Source of the DNA: a virus
Taxonomy: Duplodnaviria > Caudoviricetes
IMG/VR virus record: IMGVR_UViG_3300033121_000711
Location: 28,713-92,712 of that record
Direction: 5' to 3' (one strand)
DNA length: 64,000 bases
The notes beneath the pieces were generated by a model, which was not told the origin of the DNA, did no database searches, and saw nothing but the letters and a program-made list of their open reading frames with translations. Both the position numbers and the translations under genes were made by a program. Shown one piece after another: positions 1-36,116 of the stretch (position 1 is the stretch's first letter; every line of letters starts with the position of its first letter).

Positions 1-1884
1 GGCCGATTTCTCGACCAATAATTGTTGATTGTAAATAAAATAATTACGTTCCATTTCATGTAATCCGTAATACTTAATATTGTATCGTAGGATTACTAGG
101 TTATTATTGTTTTGCTTATAATCTGATTTCCAAGCTGCTTTTACTTTGGTTATAAGATCTTCTGTCTCAGTATAAGAAACTTCTAATGTCTGTTCTATAA
201 TGTCAGATTCTGTTATAGTTGTAACTGCTGTTGATTTCTTAGATAAATATTTAATATGAAAGACATTGTTTTTCAACCAAACAATACAACGTGATTGATA
301 AGCAATATCTTGGATAAGACTTATAACATTTGGTCGGTCTAATAAAGCAAAATTAGAAGGATAGGCAGCTAGTAGACTTTGAACTTCATTGAAGCTAGTT
401 GTATCATAAGTATGATCTGAATACGTATCAATAAGCCATTTAATAATTGTTACAGTATTTGGCCCTATTGGGCTTGTGCATGTTACATATAGTTCATCAT
501 CCCAGCCGAGACTATCACCATTAGCATCGTTTAGCGAAGACAATGCGTTAGGCACTACAATCATTGTTACTGGTAATGTGCCAAAACTGCATTGTGTCGT
601 ATAATATAGATTTGTAGGAACTAGAGATAATTGTTTTATGCCACCATAATCTCTGTAAGCGTAAACAAGTTTCACTGTAACTTGGATTGTGGCAGCTACA
701 ATGTATCTAATATAATCAGGTTCTTCATCAACATCCCCGGCAACTAATCCAAGGATAAGTCTTTGACCGGCAGGATTCCAGAAGAATTTATCTCTAGCTA
801 TATAGAGTGGTGGATCTTCAGAGCCTGCTTCTGGCGGTTCAATGTTTTTATATTTCTCAGTCTCTGGGTGTTCAGTTGAAGTGATATGGAAAGAATCGCC
901 AAGAAAATATCCTCGATACGTTCCAGATCCTATTCTATAATTACGTTCAACTCCTTGACGGAAAACTGATCCGTTAGTAACACCTATAACATTTTTATTA
1001 TAAGTTTTCTGTTTGTTTAAAATTGTTTGAAGTGCATCATTATTATCTTTGATCTTTTGAGCTTGCAAAAGATATTTATTGCCTTGATCTAAATATTGTT
1101 TAGCCAATCCACTATAGTATCCAGTACCTTCTTCAATAGATGCGAGATCGTCCAACTCTCCAAGTTTTCTTGCAGTATAAGAAGCTTGCAGATAACCTAA
1201 TAAATAGATTTGTGCTAGAGATGCAGCGTAATCAGATTGCTTAACCTGATCTGCAATATGTGGTTCAATAGAGGGATCTTCAATACCGTGATCGTCAGTT
1301 GTCGTAGAGTCTGCGGCATCGCCTTGACGATCTTTATAAGGGATATCATCTATTCGTGTAGCCGGTAATTTTAAAACAGTGCCAAAAATTAACGGCCAGA
1401 CTTTGCCTATCTGATCTTGAGGTAGATTAGAAAACTGTCCTTCTTCTGGTGAGAATCCAACTTCAATATCCGAAGCTTGCGAAATCACTGAAAAAGTTAA
1501 TGTTCTATCTGACTCTTTCCATATTACAGGTGAGGCGATTATACCAGAAAAAAGAACAAACTTATCTGTTATAGGTATGCCTGAAAACCATTGATAAATT
1601 GTTACTTTCTTGCGATGTATATCTACATTGTTAAAATATTGTTTCATCTGTCCGTCACTATCATCTAATGTGACGGTAACATTTTGTGACGTACCGCTTT
1701 TGCTGACATTAAGAACATCATCAAAAGCTGAGATACTTAAAATTCTCCCTTCAATCCCCTCAAAAGTTTTATCTCCATAAATTTTAGTCGAGTTTGTATT
1801 CCATTCAATCTCAACTAAACAGATAGGCTCTGTTCCAGTTTTTTGCTGTAGCTTTGTAAGACTGGCTGTTGATATAGTTCTCAC
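1..1884 (-). CDS. Large tail/baseplate-region structural protein, truncated at window edge (not in ORF track)
   Basis: GTG at 1884 overlaps the upstream TGA (GTGA) and reads MRTISTASLTKLQQKTGTEPICLVEIEW...; lies downstream of the tape measure gene. Only the N-terminal part was translated by hand. Confidence 0.7.
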   Translation of the reverse strand, partial: MRTISTASLTKLQQKTGTEPICLVEIEWNTNSTKIYGDKTFEGIEGRILSISAFDDVLNVSKSGTSQNVTVTLDDSDGQMKQYFNNVDIHRKKVTIYQWFSGIPITDKFVLFSGIIASPVIWKESDRTLTFSVISQASDIEVGFSPEEGQFSNLPQDQIGKVWPLIFGTVLKLPATRIDDIPYKDRQGDAADSTTTDDHGIEDPSIEPHIADQVKQSDYAASLAQIYLLGYLQASYTARKLGELDDLASIEEGTGYYSGLAKQYLDQGNKYLLQAQKIKDNNDALQTILNKQKTYNKNVIGVTNGSVFRQGVERNYRIGSGTYRGYFLGDSFHITSTEHPETEKYKNIEPPEAGSEDPPLYIARDKFFWNPAGQRLILGLVAGDVDEEPDYIRYIVAATIQVTVKLVYAYRDYGGIKQLSLVPTNLYYTTQCSFGTLPVTMIVVPNALSSLNDANGDSLGWDDELYVTCTSPIGPNTVTIIKWLIDTYSDHTYDTTSFNEVQSLLAAYPSNFALLDRPNVISLIQDIAYQSRCIVWLKNNVFHIKYLSKKSTAVTTITESDIIEQTLEVSYTETEDLITKVKAAWKSDYKQNNNNLVILRYNIKYYGLHEMERNYFIYNQQLLVEKSA

Positions 1885-2249
1885 AAGTCCACCTGAAATG
1901 AGAAGCCAGCCTGATAGTCTTCCACACCTTCTTGGGAGACTTCGTCAGCCGGAGTTGTTATAATACAGTTGTTTAAAGTCCGACCTTCATAATCTAGTAT
2001 AGTTATTTTTTGACCTAAGCTATTTCTCATAAAGGTTAAAAGATTGTACAAATCGTTTTGAGTTAAATAGCTGAACTTCCAAGTATACGTCACAAACTTA
2101 GGCCAATTGCTATCACGAAAAATTACTAAATCACCACCTCTAGTTTTCCTATTTATTCTACGTATCTCTACAGACTCTTTGTCATTAAAATCTGGATTTC
2201 TCAGTGTTACACTATTTAGTCCGTAAGTCAAAGTAATCATTATGAACAC
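1881..2249 (-). CDS. Putative distal-tail-like structural protein
   Basis: Position after tape measure; resembles the C-terminal domain of 17596..19302. Confidence 0.5.
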   Translation of the reverse strand: MFIMITLTYGLNSVTLRNPDFNDKESVEIRRINRKTRGGDLVIFRDSNWPKFVTYTWKFSYLTQNDLYNLLTFMRNSLGQKITILDYEGRTLNNCIITTPADEVSQEGVEDYQAGFSFQVDL

Positions 2250-2779
2250 TCCGGTGCATTAGGCCCTGTCAATGTTGGAAGTGTTATATAGTATTTGTCA
2301 TAATCTTCTATAATACCGACACCGTAAGAAGATATAACTAAAGTTTGAATTATTTCTATATTTCTTATAACCGTGTAAGTTGCTTCTTGTGTAAATGTTA
2401 TTGTTTGTATTGCAGCTTTACAATTATGTACTGTTACTGATTGTTCAATATCTAAAGTATGAGTAATTTGCTCATACTCAACAACTTTAGCTACTTGACC
2501 TATAATCAAATACTGAACAATATCTTGTTGGCCAGCTGACTTATGCCCGCCTTGATGCAGGTCTAAAAACTGAGTAACTGAAATATTGTTGATAGATTTT
2601 CTTACAGAGACGTTTTGAGATAAATGTAAAAAATTTGCGACGCTTAAAAACTGTCTATAGTTTTTTGCACTATCCGTTAAAACTAAAACTTGATCAACGA
2701 AAAGACTTGTTGGGAAATATTTTGAATTTCCCTGATCAAGAGCTAGAAACTGTACCACCTTCAATTCGTACACTGCCAT
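2240..2779 (-). CDS. Virion protein with QxLxLxQ beta repeats
   Basis: Repeats QFLALDQ, NFLHLSQ, QFLDLHQ, HTLDIEQ, QTITFTQ; tail module context. Confidence 0.55.
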   Translation of the reverse strand: MAVYELKVVQFLALDQGNSKYFPTSLFVDQVLVLTDSAKNYRQFLSVANFLHLSQNVSVRKSINNISVTQFLDLHQGGHKSAGQQDIVQYLIIGQVAKVVEYEQITHTLDIEQSVTVHNCKAAIQTITFTQEATYTVIRNIEIIQTLVISSYGVGIIEDYDKYYITLPTLTGPNAPECS

Positions 2780-3038
2780 CGATATCCTCCAGATCTAATG
2801 TTTGTCCACGAAGATCGTGATGACAGTCATTTAAGAATTCGATTTTACCTTCTTTAACATAATGGTGACAATGAATAATTTCACCACGCCGACTATAACC
2901 TTCAGCTAAAATTGACGGTGAAAATGTTGGCCTATCTAAATCGCCATTCCATTCCCAAATCTTTGAACTGATTTCATGCTCTATGCGACAGCCTGGACAA
3001 TTATAGGAAACAACACTACCTGATACTTTAACTTTCAT
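2736..3038 (-). CDS. DUF6527-like small Cys/His protein
   Basis: CPGC..H, WxWNG..xPTFSPSIL, CHxYVxxGxI motifs; probable start ATG 3038 with GGAG RBS. Confidence 0.6.
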   Translation of the reverse strand: MKVKVSGSVVSYNCPGCRIEHEISSKIWEWNGDLDRPTFSPSILAEGYSRRGEIIHCHHYVKEGKIEFLNDCHHDLRGQTLDLEDIDGSVRIEGGTVSSS

Positions 3039-30353: not shown

Positions 30354-30478
30354 GTGCACGCTTTTTGGACCAAATTTTGACAGTGTTAGTTCCCTCATAT
30401 AGAGATACTGCCTTTTACAGAAAATTTCTACAGCTATTTTTGGCCCAAAAAGCGTGCACGCGTACCGTAGGTACGCGT
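30354..30478. repeat. Left cluster of TGGYCCAAAAASCGTGCAC motifs plus ACGCGTACC/GGTACGCGT inverted repeat
   Basis: Copies at 30354-30374 (reverse) and 30437-30460 (forward). Confidence 0.75.
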
Positions 30479-30562
30479 AAAATCAAATCCGTTTCAACTT
30501 TTTAGTAAATTTTTTCTTAAAAGTGTCGTATAGGTAGGTGAGGGTATAAATTTTTTAGATTT

Positions 30563-30590
30563 GATTTTCAAAATCGCGATTTTGAAAATC
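30563..30590. repeat. Perfect 28-bp palindrome within an A/T-tract repeat region
   Basis: GATTTTCAAAATCG|CGATTTTGAAAATC, followed by AAAATGC x3 and TTGTTTCT repeats. Confidence 0.85.
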
Positions 30591-30956
30591 GCGATTTTGA
30601 AAATGCAAAATGCAAAAATGCTTTTTGTTTCTTGCTCTTGTTTCTTGTTTCTTGTTTAAAAATTTATAATTCTGGCATAGAGTGGGGCACCGGCTGGACC
30701 GCTGTACACTGCCATTTTCACAGCTGGCCACGCTCCCCTCCTGGGGGCCTAACCGGGGACTTGCTTTCAACCCTGGCAGTATGATATAATGGGGGTGTAA
30801 GGAAGAGAGGGTGGCTCGTGGGAGCCAGACGGAGAGCGAGTGCCACGCGTTACTCACAGTGGGAGTGCGTGCCTTTCTCAGAAGAGCCTAAGCTGGCTCC
30901 CCACAAGCGAGCCCTTTCAACCTTGCAGGGGATAACTACGTCAAGAGGGTCATGCT

Positions 30957-31094
30957 ATGTACATCTGGGAGGTAGGGGTTGACGGTGATACCGTCGGCGG
31001 TATCTACACGCAAACATCGTGCATCTTCAACGCTATCGTAGTGGCCCGTGAAGCGTTCGGCCCGAACGCTGTCCCATTCATCATCTGGAGGTAA
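30957..31094 (+). CDS. Small hypothetical protein (45 aa, not in ORF track)
   Basis: MYIWEVGVDG...FIIWR*; upstream AAGAGG. Confidence 0.4.
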   Translation: MYIWEVGVDGDTVGGIYTQTSCIFNAIVVAREAFGPNAVPFIIWR

Positions 31095-31274
31095 CGCTTA
31101 GCGGCGTCGGCACCGTGATCGTCGCGACCTATCTGGTGGTCGCGATCGTGGCCTGGGGGTCAACCCGCCCATGACCCTAGGCATCATCGTCGCCCTTGTC
31201 GTGATCGAGCGGATTGTCGCGAGCCGAGACGTTCGGCTCGCGGAACGGCACCGGGAAATTTTTTGGAGGAACGC

Positions 31275-31303
31275 TTGACAGCCGGCCGTTACTGGCCTAA
31301 GAT
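31275..31303 (+). promoter_or_regulatory. Sigma70-type promoter
   Basis: TTGACA-17 bp-TAAGAT. Confidence 0.65.
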
Positions 31304-31309
31304 GTATAT

Positions 31310-31690
31310 ACCGGGAAAGGGAACGCACAGCGGTTCGAGTCCGCTACCCGGGCCTTGCCCACACCTTGTCTTGTTAAGGAGTCCGCGTAGCTTTTGAGGA
31401 TCATGATCCCTAGCGGTCGTGTATCCGTGGTCTAGCGAACCTTCTAATTGGCGAGCCGTCCGGAACGGTCAACCCCGGTAGGGGAGATACGGGCCAAGCC
31501 GTGTGAACTGCTGTGTCACGGTAGGCTTATGAGGCGGGATACGCTGGTGACATTGAAAGCCAGGAACCGCTGACACCTTGTCCGCAAGGGAGCAATACGG
31601 AACCGCCGACCGTGGTGAAACTCCACGGCCAAGGAGCGGTCCCGGTATAACCGGGGGATAGGCAAAGGGGCTGGACTCTTAACTCTTAAG
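31310..31690 (+). ncRNA. Candidate structured non-coding RNA/leader starting with a tRNA-like T-arm minihelix
   Basis: No long ORF; AGCGG-TTCGAGT-CCGCT enclosed by CCGGG/CCCGG; several GC hairpins. Confidence 0.35.
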
Positions 31691-31705
31691 AGAAAGGCCA
31701 GTCCG

Positions 31706-32146
31706 ATGATTACCAGCTATAAGAACCAAGTCTGCGTCCGTGAGTCAGTCGAAATGGGTCGGACCTACGAGATCCGCTTCTACACTAACCCGGAAGGGGA
31801 GGTCTACGGTATCAGCGTCTCGCTGGCCACCAGCGGGAACTGGAACTGGACGAAGAATGTCGGGTCGTATGACGACTGGCAAATTAAGACTCGGGTCGAA
31901 GATGCGGCCATCGAGGCCGGACTCACGATCCCGGCGTACCTCTGGTACGTCGAGCCAGAATGCGAAAGTTTCTGGCTTGTCGTAATCAACGAGAACATGA
32001 ACGACTTCAATGCTCGGGTCGTCAACGATACCGAGTACATCCCGTTCACAAACGAGCGTATCTACACCGCATGCCGAGAGCTGGATACGGCTCTCGAACA
32101 ACTCGAGGAAGCGAAAAGCTACCTCGCAGAACGTTTCGGTCGCTAA
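31706..32146 (+). CDS. Hypothetical early protein
   Basis: ATG with AAAGG upstream; GC-rich third codon positions. Confidence 0.7.
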   Translation: MITSYKNQVCVRESVEMGRTYEIRFYTNPEGEVYGISVSLATSGNWNWTKNVGSYDDWQIKTRVEDAAIEAGLTIPAYLWYVEPECESFWLVVINENMNDFNARVVNDTEYIPFTNERIYTACRELDTALEQLEEAKSYLAERFGR

Positions 32147-32242
32147 TCACCTCAGTCCAGCCTCTCTGCCTGTCCCCCCTGTTGTACATGGGAATAGCGT
32201 AGGATCCGTACAAACGGGCCGTCAACAGAATGGACGGTCAAG

Positions 32243-32533
32243 ATGTACGAGACATATACTTCTGACGGCGAATTTCTGGAGTTCTACGATAGCGTCATGG
32301 ACGCTATCCTAGGGACTCTGAAATACTGGCCTGAGGACAACAACCCTAAGACGGTCGTTGTCCGTAACCCGGAAGGCATAGACCTTGCCACGATAGCGGC
32401 AAGGTCATGTTATGAGGCGGTAGTAGTAACGGCCGACCACATTGAAGTGGTCAGCCAGATTAACTACTGCGATGGCCGCATCGTCGCGACAACCATGCTA
32501 AGAAATGGCCATCAGTTCAAGATCAACCACTAA
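32243..32533 (+). CDS. Hypothetical early protein
   Basis: ATG-started ORF filling the loop of the second inverted repeat. Confidence 0.65.
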   Translation: MYETYTSDGEFLEFYDSVMDAILGTLKYWPEDNNPKTVVVRNPEGIDLATIAARSCYEAVVVTADHIEVVSQINYCDGRIVATTMLRNGHQFKINH

Positions 32534-32712
32534 CAGGGTTGACGGCCCGTCTGTACGGATCCTACGTTGGGTGTGGTGTCTCCGCCAATACCCCGGATAG
32601 TATAATCCCGGATTTTCAACATCAGAGTTTCTACTATCCGGTAGACTGCGTGTGCAGTCTACCTTAACTATGTTCGAGCCGGTTGGCTCGAAACTGTTCA
32701 GGAGTGTATATC

Positions 32713-33801
32713 ATGGCGAAGAACATCACGAAAACCGTTTCGATCGACACCTTGATCGTGGACTTCAAGACCAATGTGCGTCTGGCGTCCAACTACGATC
32801 TCCCGGCAATGGAGCAGTCCATTGTCGAGAAAGGGAGGATCGAGGATGCGATACATGCCAGACTGTGTGACGGCGTTGTCCTTCGGGGTAATCGTCGCAC
32901 GCTCGCAGGGCAGAAACTGCTGAAGGATCCCGCCACCCCGCAAGAGGTGGTCGCTAACCTGAAAAAGGTCGTCGTGATCTATCACGACGTGGCACCGGGA
33001 TCAGCGGAGGAGCTGTCCATTGTCCTCGATCACGGTAGCCAGAAGAAGCTGTGCAAGACGGAAGTCTTGTTGAGCGTCTGGCGGCTCGATCGCCAGTTCC
33101 AGAGCGAGATGCAGATCATCAACCGACTGTACTTCGCTCTGGCGGAGTACACTCGTCGCCAGGAAAAGGCGATCGAGGCTAGCAAGATCGTGTCTCTCAA
33201 GGAGAGGCAGGACTACCTCCGATCGTGGTTGCACGGAACCGTCGGCAACTATATGTTGGCCGGCAACAAGATGGGCGAGTACGTGCGTCAGCAGATGGAA
33301 TTGACCCACATGGCCGAAGACGGCCTACTCCCGCAAGGTGTTACGGTCGAGTGCAAGATCGACCGGACTAGAATGACGAAACTGTCCGCCGCGAAAGAAG
33401 CGGACAGCGACGCCAAGAAGGGCGGAAAGGGCTGGACGTACGAGGCTGGCGGCGAGAAGTTCAATGAACTTCTCGAAACGTTCAAGGCCGAGGATCGTGG
33501 CGAAGTCGAGAAGGAGAAGAAAAGCCGGCCTTCCCCGAAGGAGTTGAAGGATCGGGCAAACTCCTTCAAGAGCCCTGCCATCAGGTCTGCCCTGATGGTT
33601 GCGGCCGGAGAGGTTGAACACGGCAAGGATCTCGTGGAGCTGGATGACCGTCTGCATCGTATGCAGATGGTCACGGATACGCTGTCCAAGCGTATCGGAG
33701 AGATCGCCGACGAAAAGATCGTTGCCCTCATCAAGGCCATCATCGGCGATGGACCGGCCGGTGAAATTGAATTGGCGATCAACAAGATCGTCGGCAAGTA
33801 A
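32713..33801 (+). CDS. ParB/Srx-like N-terminal domain protein
   Basis: I..LIVD...NVR....L..M..SI...G....I.....VVLRGNRR..A; start 32713 with AGGAG RBS. Confidence 0.65.
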   Translation: MAKNITKTVSIDTLIVDFKTNVRLASNYDLPAMEQSIVEKGRIEDAIHARLCDGVVLRGNRRTLAGQKLLKDPATPQEVVANLKKVVVIYHDVAPGSAEELSIVLDHGSQKKLCKTEVLLSVWRLDRQFQSEMQIINRLYFALAEYTRRQEKAIEASKIVSLKERQDYLRSWLHGTVGNYMLAGNKMGEYVRQQMELTHMAEDGLLPQGVTVECKIDRTRMTKLSAAKEADSDAKKGGKGWTYEAGGEKFNELLETFKAEDRGEVEKEKKSRPSPKELKDRANSFKSPAIRSALMVAAGEVEHGKDLVELDDRLHRMQMVTDTLSKRIGEIADEKIVALIKAIIGDGPAGEIELAINKIVGK

Positions 33802-33859
33802 AGTAAGTTAGCCCCTATCCGGGGTATTGACGAAGCCACCACACCCAAAAGGAGGAAGT

Positions 33860-34036
33860 ATGAGTGCATGGGCATACGTCAAGAAAGATCTTGACGTATG
33901 GCGGTACTGTATGAGCCGATACTTCGCACTATGCGAACGTATCGGCGGAACCGAATGTGCAAAAAGGTGTGTTCGACACCTTTTCAAGAGATGTGTCGCG
34001 GAACAGGTTCACACAATCCTGGAGTTAGTATCATGA
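33860..34036 (+). CDS. Small hypothetical protein
   Basis: AGGAGG RBS before ATG 33860. Confidence 0.55.
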   Translation: MSAWAYVKKDLDVWRYCMSRYFALCERIGGTECAKRCVRHLFKRCVAEQVHTILELVS

Positions 34037-34197
34037 AGATCCAGACGACTGGTAGGTTCATCAGTGTTTGCGAGCCCAACCAAGGTCGCACGTATGATGA
34101 AAATGGGCGTTTGCTTACGCGATCGCTCGTTACTGGGCGATCCCGCAAGCTGAACAAAAAGCTTCACGCACGCAAACTAAGGCGTGAAGTTATTTAG
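34033..34197 (+). CDS. Small basic hypothetical protein
   Basis: ATGA overlap; GGAG RBS. Confidence 0.5.
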   Translation: MKIQTTGRFISVCEPNQGRTYDENGRLLTRSLVTGRSRKLNKKLHARKLRREVI

Positions 34198-34284
34198 TCC
34201 ACATCCGGGGTAGCGATCATCCCCCGCTACTGAAACATAGGGGATGAACGGAGACACCACATTTGTTTCCCGGAGTGAAAAAGC

Positions 34285-34488
34285 ATGAAACGTCTCATAA
34301 CGTTTGATATCGGAGACCGTTTCCGGTATCAGAACTGTATATTCGAGGTGAAAGAGTTCGTATACAATAACGGACTCTTGTCCCATTTGGATTGTATCCT
34401 GGTGAGGTTTTTCTCAAACAATAAGTGGGTCTTTCCCGCAAACATTGTTGAGCAATTCTCACCGGAATTGCTTGTGGAGCTCAAATGA
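34285..34488 (+). CDS. Small hypothetical protein
   Basis: GGAG RBS, ATG. Confidence 0.5.
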   Translation: MKRLITFDIGDRFRYQNCIFEVKEFVYNNGLLSHLDCILVRFFSNNKWVFPANIVEQFSPELLVELK

Positions 34489-35192
34489 TAATGTTTACAC
34501 TGTTTCTGGGCATAATTCTGTATATTGTGCTCAGAATGCAAAAGTAAACCCGTGAGCCTAGCTAAACTAGGTGGTTCCGTGTTTATTGAAAACGGAACCA
34601 CGAGTCAAGGAAAAGCTACATGCTGATAATCACCCCGAAACAATGGAATGAGGCTACAATAAACGCCAGGTTGCGTTCATTGGGCTACTGTGAACTACGA
34701 TATGTTCAGGTATATCGGTTCAATATACCGCATACTTGAAATGCTCCCGGAGACGGTTCATTGTATCCGTCTAATGTGTTGAGGATTGGTGTATCACGGA
34801 ACAAAAAGCCGTGAATATACCAAACAACGTCGTAGTGAAAAAAGTCAATAGGTTATTCCGGGAGCATGTTTGGGTAGATTCAGACGGTAACGTCTGGGAT
34901 TATCCGAAAGACGATTGCGTAAAAAAGGAGGTATACACTGCGAATTAATCGGAACGCTCTATTGGAAACTTTTGGACTACCCCAAAAAATTCCGGCAGAG
35001 TATACGGCGGTTTTCTACAATGTGGAAAACTGGTCGTTTTGTAAGACTTATAGCGAGCGTGAACTGATCGGGACAATTTTGTCATTCTCCCGTCTCGGAA
35101 AAAGAAACATCGTGTTTATGTTGAATGTTCTTGCGGTCGTTTGATAACGACTGGCAAGTTCAAACAACACAGGTGCCTAAAGGCACGCAAAT

Positions 35193-35228
35193 AAAAATGG
35201 CCGGTATTGTACAATACCGGCCATTTTT
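35193..35228. terminator. Perfect 36-bp palindrome, likely bidirectional terminator at the strand convergence
   Basis: AAAAATGGCCGGTATTGT|ACAATACCGGCCATTTTT. Confidence 0.7.
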
Positions 35229-35266
35229 TGATTTGACCAAGCTAACTAGCTTGGTCCAAGCCAATT

Positions 35267-35612
35267 CGTGCACGCTTTTTGGCCCAAAATCCGTGCACGG
35301 TTTTTGGGCCAAAATTACCCTTTTTACTCTTTCAAAGTCATATTATTTCTGTGTGTAGTAAGGTAGTTATAGGAAAGAATAGAATTAATATAATTCGACT
35401 TAGGTAACGGTAAAACGGCCTTATCCTGGTGAACCCGTAGGGGTCGCTCCTGCTGGAATGCCGTCCCAGTGAAACAGGTTGCCCCGGAAAGGCATCCCGT
35501 TAGGTTATCCAGGTGATGACTCGACCAAACAAAACGCTCCACAGAGACGTGCATATGGTGGTCCAAAAACCGTGCACGACCCCGTCCAAAAGTGGCCCAA
35601 AAAGCGTGCACG
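35267..35612. repeat. Right cluster of TGGYCCAAAAASCGTGCACG motifs
   Basis: Copies at 35267-35314 (two, overlapping), 35559-35578 and 35593-35612. Confidence 0.75.
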
Positions 35613-36116
35613 CACTAACGTGCCAAAGCTTTAATCTGCTCTGGTGTAGCAATCTCTATCAAATCACCTTTAGCAATCCGTAACACTTCAGCAAACATTT
35701 TAAATCTCTCCGAATCAGTCTTATAGGTAGCTTCAAAAAAATCCTCTGTAATAGGTGAGTTCAAACGCCTCATCGATTGTAAGACCCAATCGACCATACC
35801 TATTAACACTGCATTTTATTGGCTGCCCAATTCTGCCTTCAACATTGAAACGCATATTGTTGACTGCAACCAACTCTGCTAGTCGTTCAAAATCCACAAG
35901 CTACTCCATAAATTATGCGACCACAAAGCATACTAGCATGCTCATTGACAAAGCTATCAAAGTATGCTTGTGGGCTAGAAGCTAATTGATATCTCTTACC
36001 GTTTAAAGTTATCTGTCCTTCAATACGCCACTCTTTATATCCTAAGATTTCAACAATCTTTTCTCTAGTGGCCTCACCTATCACCTCTTCGATCTTACCA
36101 TCTACAGTGATTTTGA

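Follow-up and report, generated by a model that had tools for sequence, protein, structure and literature searches.

Three genes between paired arms

Between two blocks of minus-strand genes in the genome of an uncultured soil siphophage lies a module of plus-strand genes (~30690-35230), in which three consecutive genes are each enclosed by the two arms of an inverted repeat of their own. The window analysed here, a stretch of 64,000 nucleotides (nt), covers positions 28713-92712 of a viral contig that is 92.7 kb long and has a completeness rating of 99% (IMG/VR record IMGVR_UViG_3300033121_000711), and positions are given as those of the window. The first repeat surrounds gene 1 and has a core of 25 nt (31653-31677 and 32154-32178; 88%, with 22 Watson-Crick, two G-U and one A-C pairs). 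The second surrounds gene 2 over 29 nt (32198-32226 and 32538-32566; 97%, with 28 pairs out of 29, or 29 out of 31 when extended), and the third, of 34 nt (32567-32600 and 33815-33848; 91%, 31 pairs out of 34), surrounds the gene of a protein with a ParB-like fold. These repeats had been reported in an earlier note made from the letters of this DNA alone, and a repeat search together with a pair count reproduced their positions and numbers of pairs, as well as the direct contact of the second and third repeats at 32566/32567. From here on they are called helices 1, 2 and 3.

All the arms are wholly intergenic. The 5′ arms of helices 1 to 3 end 28, 16 and 112 nt upstream of the start codons and the 3′ arms begin 7, 4 and 13 nt past the stop codons, an arrangement that tightly brackets each open reading frame (ORF) and its ribosome-binding site (RBS). 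In helices 2 and 3 the enclosed ORF takes up 92-94% of the loop. Overall, helix lengths range from 25 to 36 base pairs (bp) and loops from 311 to 1214 nt. Such repeats are far beyond chance: when the GC-rich module was shuffled (n=200) and inverted repeats were counted whose loops measured 100 nt or more, the best long-range repeat reached 20 matches and none reached 22, compared with the 22, 29 and 31 observed. Moreover, a scan of the whole genome (92,712 bases; 18/20 matches, loops of 150-3000), a check already proposed in the earlier note, returned these helices, copies of a border motif described below and one 20-nt pair elsewhere, with no other gene-flanking repeat of such quality in the 92.7 kb. 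An origin by chance or as an assembly artefact was also rejected, since the identical layout is found in JGI, Logan, ENA and NCBI assemblies.

The minimum free energy (MFE) fold of 31310-34300 holds all three helices. In this fold helix 1 is lengthened, with bulges, to 31641-31676 paired with 32155-32192 and ends 4 nt before helix 2, so that consecutive helices would be practically contiguous, only 4 nt (helices 1 and 2) and 0 nt (helices 2 and 3) lying between them. The duplex energies of the arms taken by themselves are -62, -57.5 and -53.7 kcal/mol for helices 1, 2 and 3, respectively.

Conservation of the pairing around the ParB-like gene

The ParB-like protein has 49 homologues with 35-89% identity, mostly from soil metagenomes; several are encoded on contigs 86-97 kb long. 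A locus search in IMG/VR with the single protein returned nothing, and a profile search gave two loci in IMG/VR plus eight in metagenomes; the comparative set comprised 18 non-redundant loci (individual loci are designated below by L numbers). The layout of a plus-strand small-gene module between minus-strand blocks is common to all 18, down to the most distant ones, in which the identity of the ParB-like protein falls to 36-44%. Complementarity was scored without gaps between the 420 nt upstream and the 160 nt downstream of each homologue, instead of with RNAduplex, which on flanks of 260 x 200 nt over-extends and poorly separates cognate from non-cognate flanks. In this way, a helix enclosing the homologue was found in 18/18 loci, with 13-36 bp (18 bp or more in 17 of them) and differing sequences, and the cognate flanks reached a mean complementarity of 21.9 (minimum 13) versus 8.2 +/- 1.4 (maximum 15) for non-cognate ones.

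A common register was fixed by aligning, in 17 loci, the whole stretch bounded by the outermost base of each arm, both bases included. Standard pairs fill 86% of the cells of this alignment; shuffling the partners among sequences lowers this to 64% and sliding the register to 36-45%. Further, 29 of the 33 base pairs show double-sided changes, the kind of compensatory evidence in related phages that the earlier note had proposed to look for. None of 500 shuffles attained any of the four measures. The outer 10 pairs of helix 3 are conserved in sequence (GGGTAYGG...), whereas the inner half is conserved as pairing only and cannot be aligned between relatives. A detailed view of the register reveals that at column 22 (32579 opposite 33836) 10 of 16 sequences lack a canonical pair, nine of these having a pyrimidine-pyrimidine opposition, with letters that vary by locus; column 25 is unpaired in half of the sequences. 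Retained as it is despite its changing letters, the mismatch at column 22 is a selected feature of the folded molecule, of a kind not expected from two repeats that had simply been homogenised. On the evidence of these comparisons, the repeats are selected base-pairing elements, and the maintenance of pairing across relatives with differing letters points to a selected fold, most likely of the mRNA.

Helix 2 and strings of enclosed units in relatives

Homologues of gene 2 were found in L009 (89% identity), L024 (34%) and L008 (32%), each of them within its own helix of ~30 bp with a different sequence, and in the three cases this counterpart of helix 2 adjoins the 5′ arm of helix 3. A helix that ends 18 nt or less from that arm was seen in at least nine relatives. 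What its loop contains varies: four loci have a gene-2 homologue there, others have different small ORFs, and L006 has just 63 nt. The gene-free helix 2 of L006 (4819-4843/4907-4931), which also abuts the 5′ arm of helix 3, has arms that resemble those of L024 and L008. Longer series also occur, with three units in L016 and a string of six gene-enclosing units in L011, whose arms are 5-9 nt apart. L011 also has an outer helix of 36 nt (4314-4349/7224-7259; 33 Watson-Crick pairs) that extends over 2.9 kb, with five gene-enclosing helices in its interior; since the loop of the following unit contains the 3′ arm of this outer helix, the full set cannot be nested.

A repeated intergenic element and its single inverted copy

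In the 3′ arm of helix 3, the 16 nt farthest from the gene are one member of a repeated intergenic element, called here R. Four to seven copies of R, on the plus strand only, are present in L008, L010, L021, L022, L023, L025, L026 and L027, following the order of a variable GC-rich hairpin, (C)AAC, R, 5-25 nt, a Shine-Dalgarno sequence and ATG. A single inverted copy per genome constitutes the 5′ arm of helix 3 (anti-R) and is identical to the consensus of the other copies. This arm consequently has secondary partners behind genes farther downstream: L021 has four, L022 and L026 have two more each, and L006, L010 and L025 have one each. The window contains two copies of R, the primary partner and a second one (R3′), and the segment 34240-34261 is an alternative partner of the 5′ arm over 22 nt (82%, -36.7 kcal/mol). 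Judged by complementarity, the arm can pair with either copy, leading to alternative loops. At its inner end the same arm faces competition from a local hairpin at 32595-32641, the first one in the 5′ untranslated region (UTR) of the ParB-like gene. The AAC...CGTA part of R was also considered as a site for an ECF sigma factor and rejected by eye, its spacing being ~8 nt and not 16-17.

A role in the messenger RNA and its alternatives

The earlier note had taken the G-U pairs of the stems as a sign of pairing at the RNA level, an argument that fails. Among ~42 gene-enclosing stems of the 18 loci, the non-Watson-Crick cells comprise 31 G-U, 29 A-C and 39 other oppositions, and the plus strand of the window shows 2-3 G-U and four A-C. 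This tally is the one expected from mutation alone, as a single weak pair costs little in long helices, and the duplex energies are equal for plus- and minus-strand RNA. With no G-U excess and with equal energies for both strands, the wobble pairs are silent on the strand and on the choice between RNA and DNA. Indirect support for the RNA level comes from the helices themselves, which are confined to one operon, on the coding strand, and bracket each cistron exactly from RBS to stop. Equally indirect is the support given by the next RBS directly after the 3′ arm, by the downstream local hairpins that replace the 3′ arm, and by the kept mismatch.

With slightly better than even confidence, and from sequence comparison, we favour the view that these are selected long-range helices of the mRNA that govern the access of nucleases to single cistrons. 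The three repeats would be the two strands of helices formed within one polycistronic plus-strand mRNA, each of them (25-36 bp, ~-54 to -62 kcal/mol) looping out one cistron together with its RBS. We infer that they act at the RNA level, where their most likely use would be the control of host ribonucleases. A cut in a helix would produce single-gene messages with their 5′ and 3′ ends still clamped and shielded from exonucleases, and an uncut helix would equally shield the ends and insulate the folding of each cistron. The 5′ arm of helix 3 would pair after the ParB-like gene or, more weakly, at 34240-34261, so that alternative loops could arise. On the plus strand, a promoter-like site occurs at 31275-31303 and no terminator-like site is found between the helix arms. 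Helix size and loop range fit the substrates mapped for bacterial RNase III (PMC11780869). The phage proteins include neither RNase III nor RtcB, and the acting enzyme would therefore be the host's; the same lack led us to drop a self-contained cut-and-ligate system and leaves the circularisable mRNAs put forward in the earlier note unsupported.

Several points weigh against this role in nuclease access. The stems show no preference for wobble pairs on the plus strand, and by their duplex energies a minus-strand RNA or a single-stranded DNA would be equally foldable. Moreover, the helix 3 loop of 1214 nt exceeds the B. subtilis maximum of 505 nt, and the promoter and the terminator are consensus matches only. 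Helix 1 has no comparative support because the only relative found for gene 1 lies on a truncated contig; the conservation of stems around homologous genes, which the earlier note had made a touchstone of its proposal, was seen for helices 2 and 3.

The same arms could form a regulatory switch of the RNA instead of a processing site, in which the anti-R arm sequesters one R copy or selects the enclosed cistrons, thereby tuning how well the genes downstream of the ParB-like one are translated or how stable their message is, with helices 1 and 2 as simple insulators. Such a switch seems unlikely to us, yet it accounts for much of what surrounds R: its position 5-25 nt ahead of the RBS of successive genes, exclusively on the plus strand and in 4-7 copies in eight relatives; the one inverted R in the 5′ arm of helix 3, matching the consensus of the copies; the conservation of secondary partners in the window, L006, L010, L021, L022, L025 and L026; and a competing local hairpin at both ends. 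It fits less well with the 14-20 extra private bp of the primary pair, by which one partner is strongly preferred, and with the presence of just two R copies in the window. We give somewhat less weight still to a feature of the DNA, whereby the arms would delimit slots for single genes and, while the phage replicates or recombines, fold in single-stranded DNA or else guide template switching. The enclosed gene would thus be gained, lost or exchanged more readily, and the complementarity would be maintained by templated correction instead of selection on RNA. The types of mismatch, which show no strand asymmetry, the varying content of the helix that neighbours anti-R in at least nine relatives (gene-2 homologue, other ORFs or 63 nt) and the unalignable inner halves of helix 3 are in keeping with such slots. 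However, inverted repeats yield inversion rather than excision, a mismatch at a fixed position with varying letters is contrary to simple homogenisation, the arms are placed in accord with translation signals and with a single predicted transcription unit, and the module contains no recognisable recombinase.

Gene-flanking inverted repeats are also the anatomy of invertible segments, an alternative raised in the earlier note, and recombination between the arms would then bring about phase variation. We consider this very improbable, because the ParB-like gene and its plus-strand neighbours keep the same relative orientation in all the fetched loci, which come from independent assemblies; besides, the arms differ from gene to gene, and the module genes gave no invertase or integrase hit in Pfam or PHROGs. 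A further reading, which we consider doubtful, would make the anti-R arm a built-in anti-repeat that pairs in cis or in trans with whichever R is available and steers a double-strand-specific nuclease to the junction. If true, the phage would set the sites of cutting or closure of its operon by base pairing, formally akin to the pairing of tracrRNA with repeats when CRISPR RNAs mature, but applied to mRNAs.

Comparison with known systems

In the rrn precursors of bacteria, stalks cut by RNase III flank the 16S and 23S rRNAs. The phage module shares with them the pairing of the flanks of a long unit (~25-30 bp), the arrangement of units in series in what would be one transcript, and covariation, with flank-formed helices of at least ~20 bp and compensatory change in helices 2 and 3. 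It differs in that the units are phage protein-coding cistrons, the cleavage is putative, and the outer half of helix 3 is a repeated intergenic element. The RNase III sites of the T7 early transcript are local hairpins. They are, like the helices proposed here, double-stranded RNA elements between the cistrons of a polycistronic phage transcript, whereas in our case the strands lie on opposite sides of a gene and 311-1214 nt apart, unlike the T7 type; local hairpins are present downstream of the ParB-like gene. An integron cassette with its attC site was also discarded, as the arms enclose the gene instead of being local and no integrase was recognised in the module.

Closer parallels in mRNAs come from B. 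subtilis, where RNase III acts on duplexes of 10-36 bp formed within one mRNA, its two cuts being as much as 505 nt apart (PMC11780869). Duplex length is similar (10-36 versus 25-36 bp) and the proposed pairing is equally intramolecular over hundreds of nt, but the B. subtilis duplexes are scattered single cases of the host, whereas in the phage every module cistron is bracketed from before its RBS to after its stop codon, with loops of 311-1214 nt. In this line, a 14-bp pairing of the 5′ UTR with the 3′ UTR in the hbs mRNA from B. subtilis modulates its cleavage by RNase Y (PMC5737220). Paired message ends and a modulated access of an endonuclease, here a proposal, are common to both; hbs relies on 14 bp in one monocistronic host message, in contrast to the 25-36 bp helices placed in tandem within a predicted polycistronic phage transcript.

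As for the R element, its layout recalls that of the start-associated sequences (SAS) of the Cluster K mycobacteriophages, an asymmetric repeat that precedes the start codons of non-structural genes in one orientation, often with an upstream hairpin and a CAAC-rich linker (PMC3203893). R and SAS, together with the extended form of the latter (ESAS), have in common the asymmetric repeat before the start codon, the single orientation, the upstream hairpin and a single copy on the opposite strand. They differ in that SAS holds the Shine-Dalgarno sequence and R lies upstream of it; the sequences are unrelated, R not being homologous to GGGATAGGAGCCC. In the genome of Adephagia (L028) the SAS layout was confirmed, and its reverse SAS copy showed no extended complementarity enclosing a gene. 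Successive ESAS copies of this phage do show 20-nt complementarity around gp75 and gp91 (30302-30321/30853-30872 and 37770-37790/38081-38101), a by-product of repeated palindromes, although these may pair in the RNA all the same.

The mapping of long-range pairing in bacterial mRNAs has just begun, and the known examples come from scattered host genes and rRNA stalks. What the phage adds is a whole operon of cistrons, each of which would be closed by a private helix, together with the R/anti-R relation of the arms of helix 3 and one internal position of this helix that is kept mismatched. As the layout is maintained across a diverged family (36-44% identity), it would offer a natural system for end-to-end message pairing in which questions of processing, protection, insulation and cistron choice could be addressed. 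It also suggests an idea that could be tested on the start-associated repeats of mycobacteriophages, which are still unexplained and likewise have one opposite-strand copy, and RNA insulators acting cistron by cistron would be useful parts for synthetic operons.

Genes and other features of the module

The best start of the ParB-like gene is the ATG at 32713, preceded by AGGAG. A structure model of its 362-amino-acid (aa) product, obtained with AlphaFold from 19 homologues (pLDDT 88), matches in Foldseek the N-terminal and DNA-binding domains of ParB, Noc and KorB (5k5d, 6sdk, 7bnr, 7ng0 and 8qa8), the matches covering ~230 residues at a probability of 1.00 and E values of 4e-4 to 5e-3, and a GNRR motif, invariant in the family, is located at the position of the ParB arginine patch. 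By its modelled fold the enclosed protein is ParB-like. This label, already given in the earlier note, stands for the fold and finds little echo at the level of Pfam, where ParB_N matched one of the 19 family members, weakly (E 0.007); the family profile found no hit among PDB sequences. The small genes of the module, including genes 1 and 2, gave no Pfam or PHROGs match, and the sole relative found for gene 1, in L009, has 50% identity over 88 aa. A blastn search with the module against 50,697 phage records gave no match, and Rfam at a permissive threshold gave nothing credible. The features of the module are collected in Table 1.

Table 1. Genes, helix arms and putative signals of the module (window positions)
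Feature	Position	Strand	Basis and remarks
Sigma-70-like promoter, the module's best	31275-31303	+	TTGACA-17-TAAGAT, 10/12 consensus matches
ORF-free GC-rich structured leader	31310-31640	+	Directly after the best promoter; sequence reading
Helix 1, 5′ arm	31641-31677	+	Core 31653-31677; MFE fold; duplex -62 kcal/mol
Gene 1, 146 aa	31706-32146	+	No family
Helix 1, 3′ arm	32154-32192	+	Core 32154-32178; begins 7 nt past gene 1 stop
Helix 2, 5′ arm	32196-32226	+	-57.5 kcal/mol; 16 nt short of gene 2 start codon
Gene 2, 96 aa	32243-32533	+	No family
Helix 2, 3′ arm	32538-32568	+	Begins 4 nt past gene 2 stop; abuts helix 3
Helix 3, 5′ arm (anti-R)	32567-32600	+	Sole inverted R copy plus private inner part
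5′ UTR of ParB-like gene	32601-32712	+	Three local hairpins
ParB/Noc/KorB-fold protein (predicted), 362 aa, GNRR motif	32713-33801	+	Homologue search, structure model, Foldseek
Helix 3, 3′ arm	33815-33848	+	Outer 16 nt (33833-33848) are R; then AAAGGAGG and gene 4 ATG
Genes 4 (33860-34036) and 5 (34033-34197)	33860-34197	+	ATGA overlap; unit between R3 and R3′
Local hairpin (34217-34224/34240-34247), AAC, second R (R3′)	34217-34261	+	Repeat search, duplex energy
Perfect 22-nt overlapping palindrome with T-run	35193-35228		Inverted-repeat search, sequence reading

On its left, the module is bordered by the minus-strand genes of the tape measure, major head, portal and large terminase, and on its right by those of a helicase, a ligase and a thymidylate synthase, also on the minus strand. 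Its left 3.6 kb have 55-60% G+C, compared with 41% genome-wide; this GC-rich island extends over 30690-34300, and the GC3 of the ParB-like gene is 0.75. The backbones of the relatives have mostly 55-65% G+C, and those of lower GC (L021, L025, L026 and L027) also hold a richer module. The island suggests either a recent exchange with high-GC relatives or a constraint of RNA structure.

The promoter-like site at 31275-31303 is the probable start of a transcript that carries all three helices, and the palindrome at 35193-35228 is probably a bidirectional terminator ending the module. The leader (31309-31640) opens with a tRNA-like minihelix, in which a canonical T-arm (GGTTCGAGTCC) is joined to a short stem of acceptor type; neither an Rfam family nor an ARAGORN tRNA call was obtained for 31310-31640. 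A TATAAT at 32602-32607 was dismissed as a promoter, as it has no -35 element and is not conserved among relatives. A second promoter-like site, missed by the scanner, occurs at 30752-30781 (TTGCTT, 18 nt, TGaTATAAT with an extended -10) and precedes an ORF of 45 aa (30957-31094).

Both borders of the module carry inverted copies of a motif, GTGCACGCTTTTTGGCCCAAA, which is present at the borders of the relatives too. In the form GTGCACG(C/G)TTTTTGG(G/C)CCAAA, its inverted copies occupy 30354-30374, 30439-30459, 35263-35312 and 35555-35617, its core TTTTGGNCCAAAA is palindromic, and it also flanks the module in L006, L008, L021 and L022. The motif is a candidate promoter, operator or parS-like loading site for the ParB/KorB-fold protein. 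Finally, the left border (30551-30660) is AT-rich and contains tandem TTTTGAAAATCGCGA and TTGTTTC repeats as well as a near-palindrome of 33 nt.

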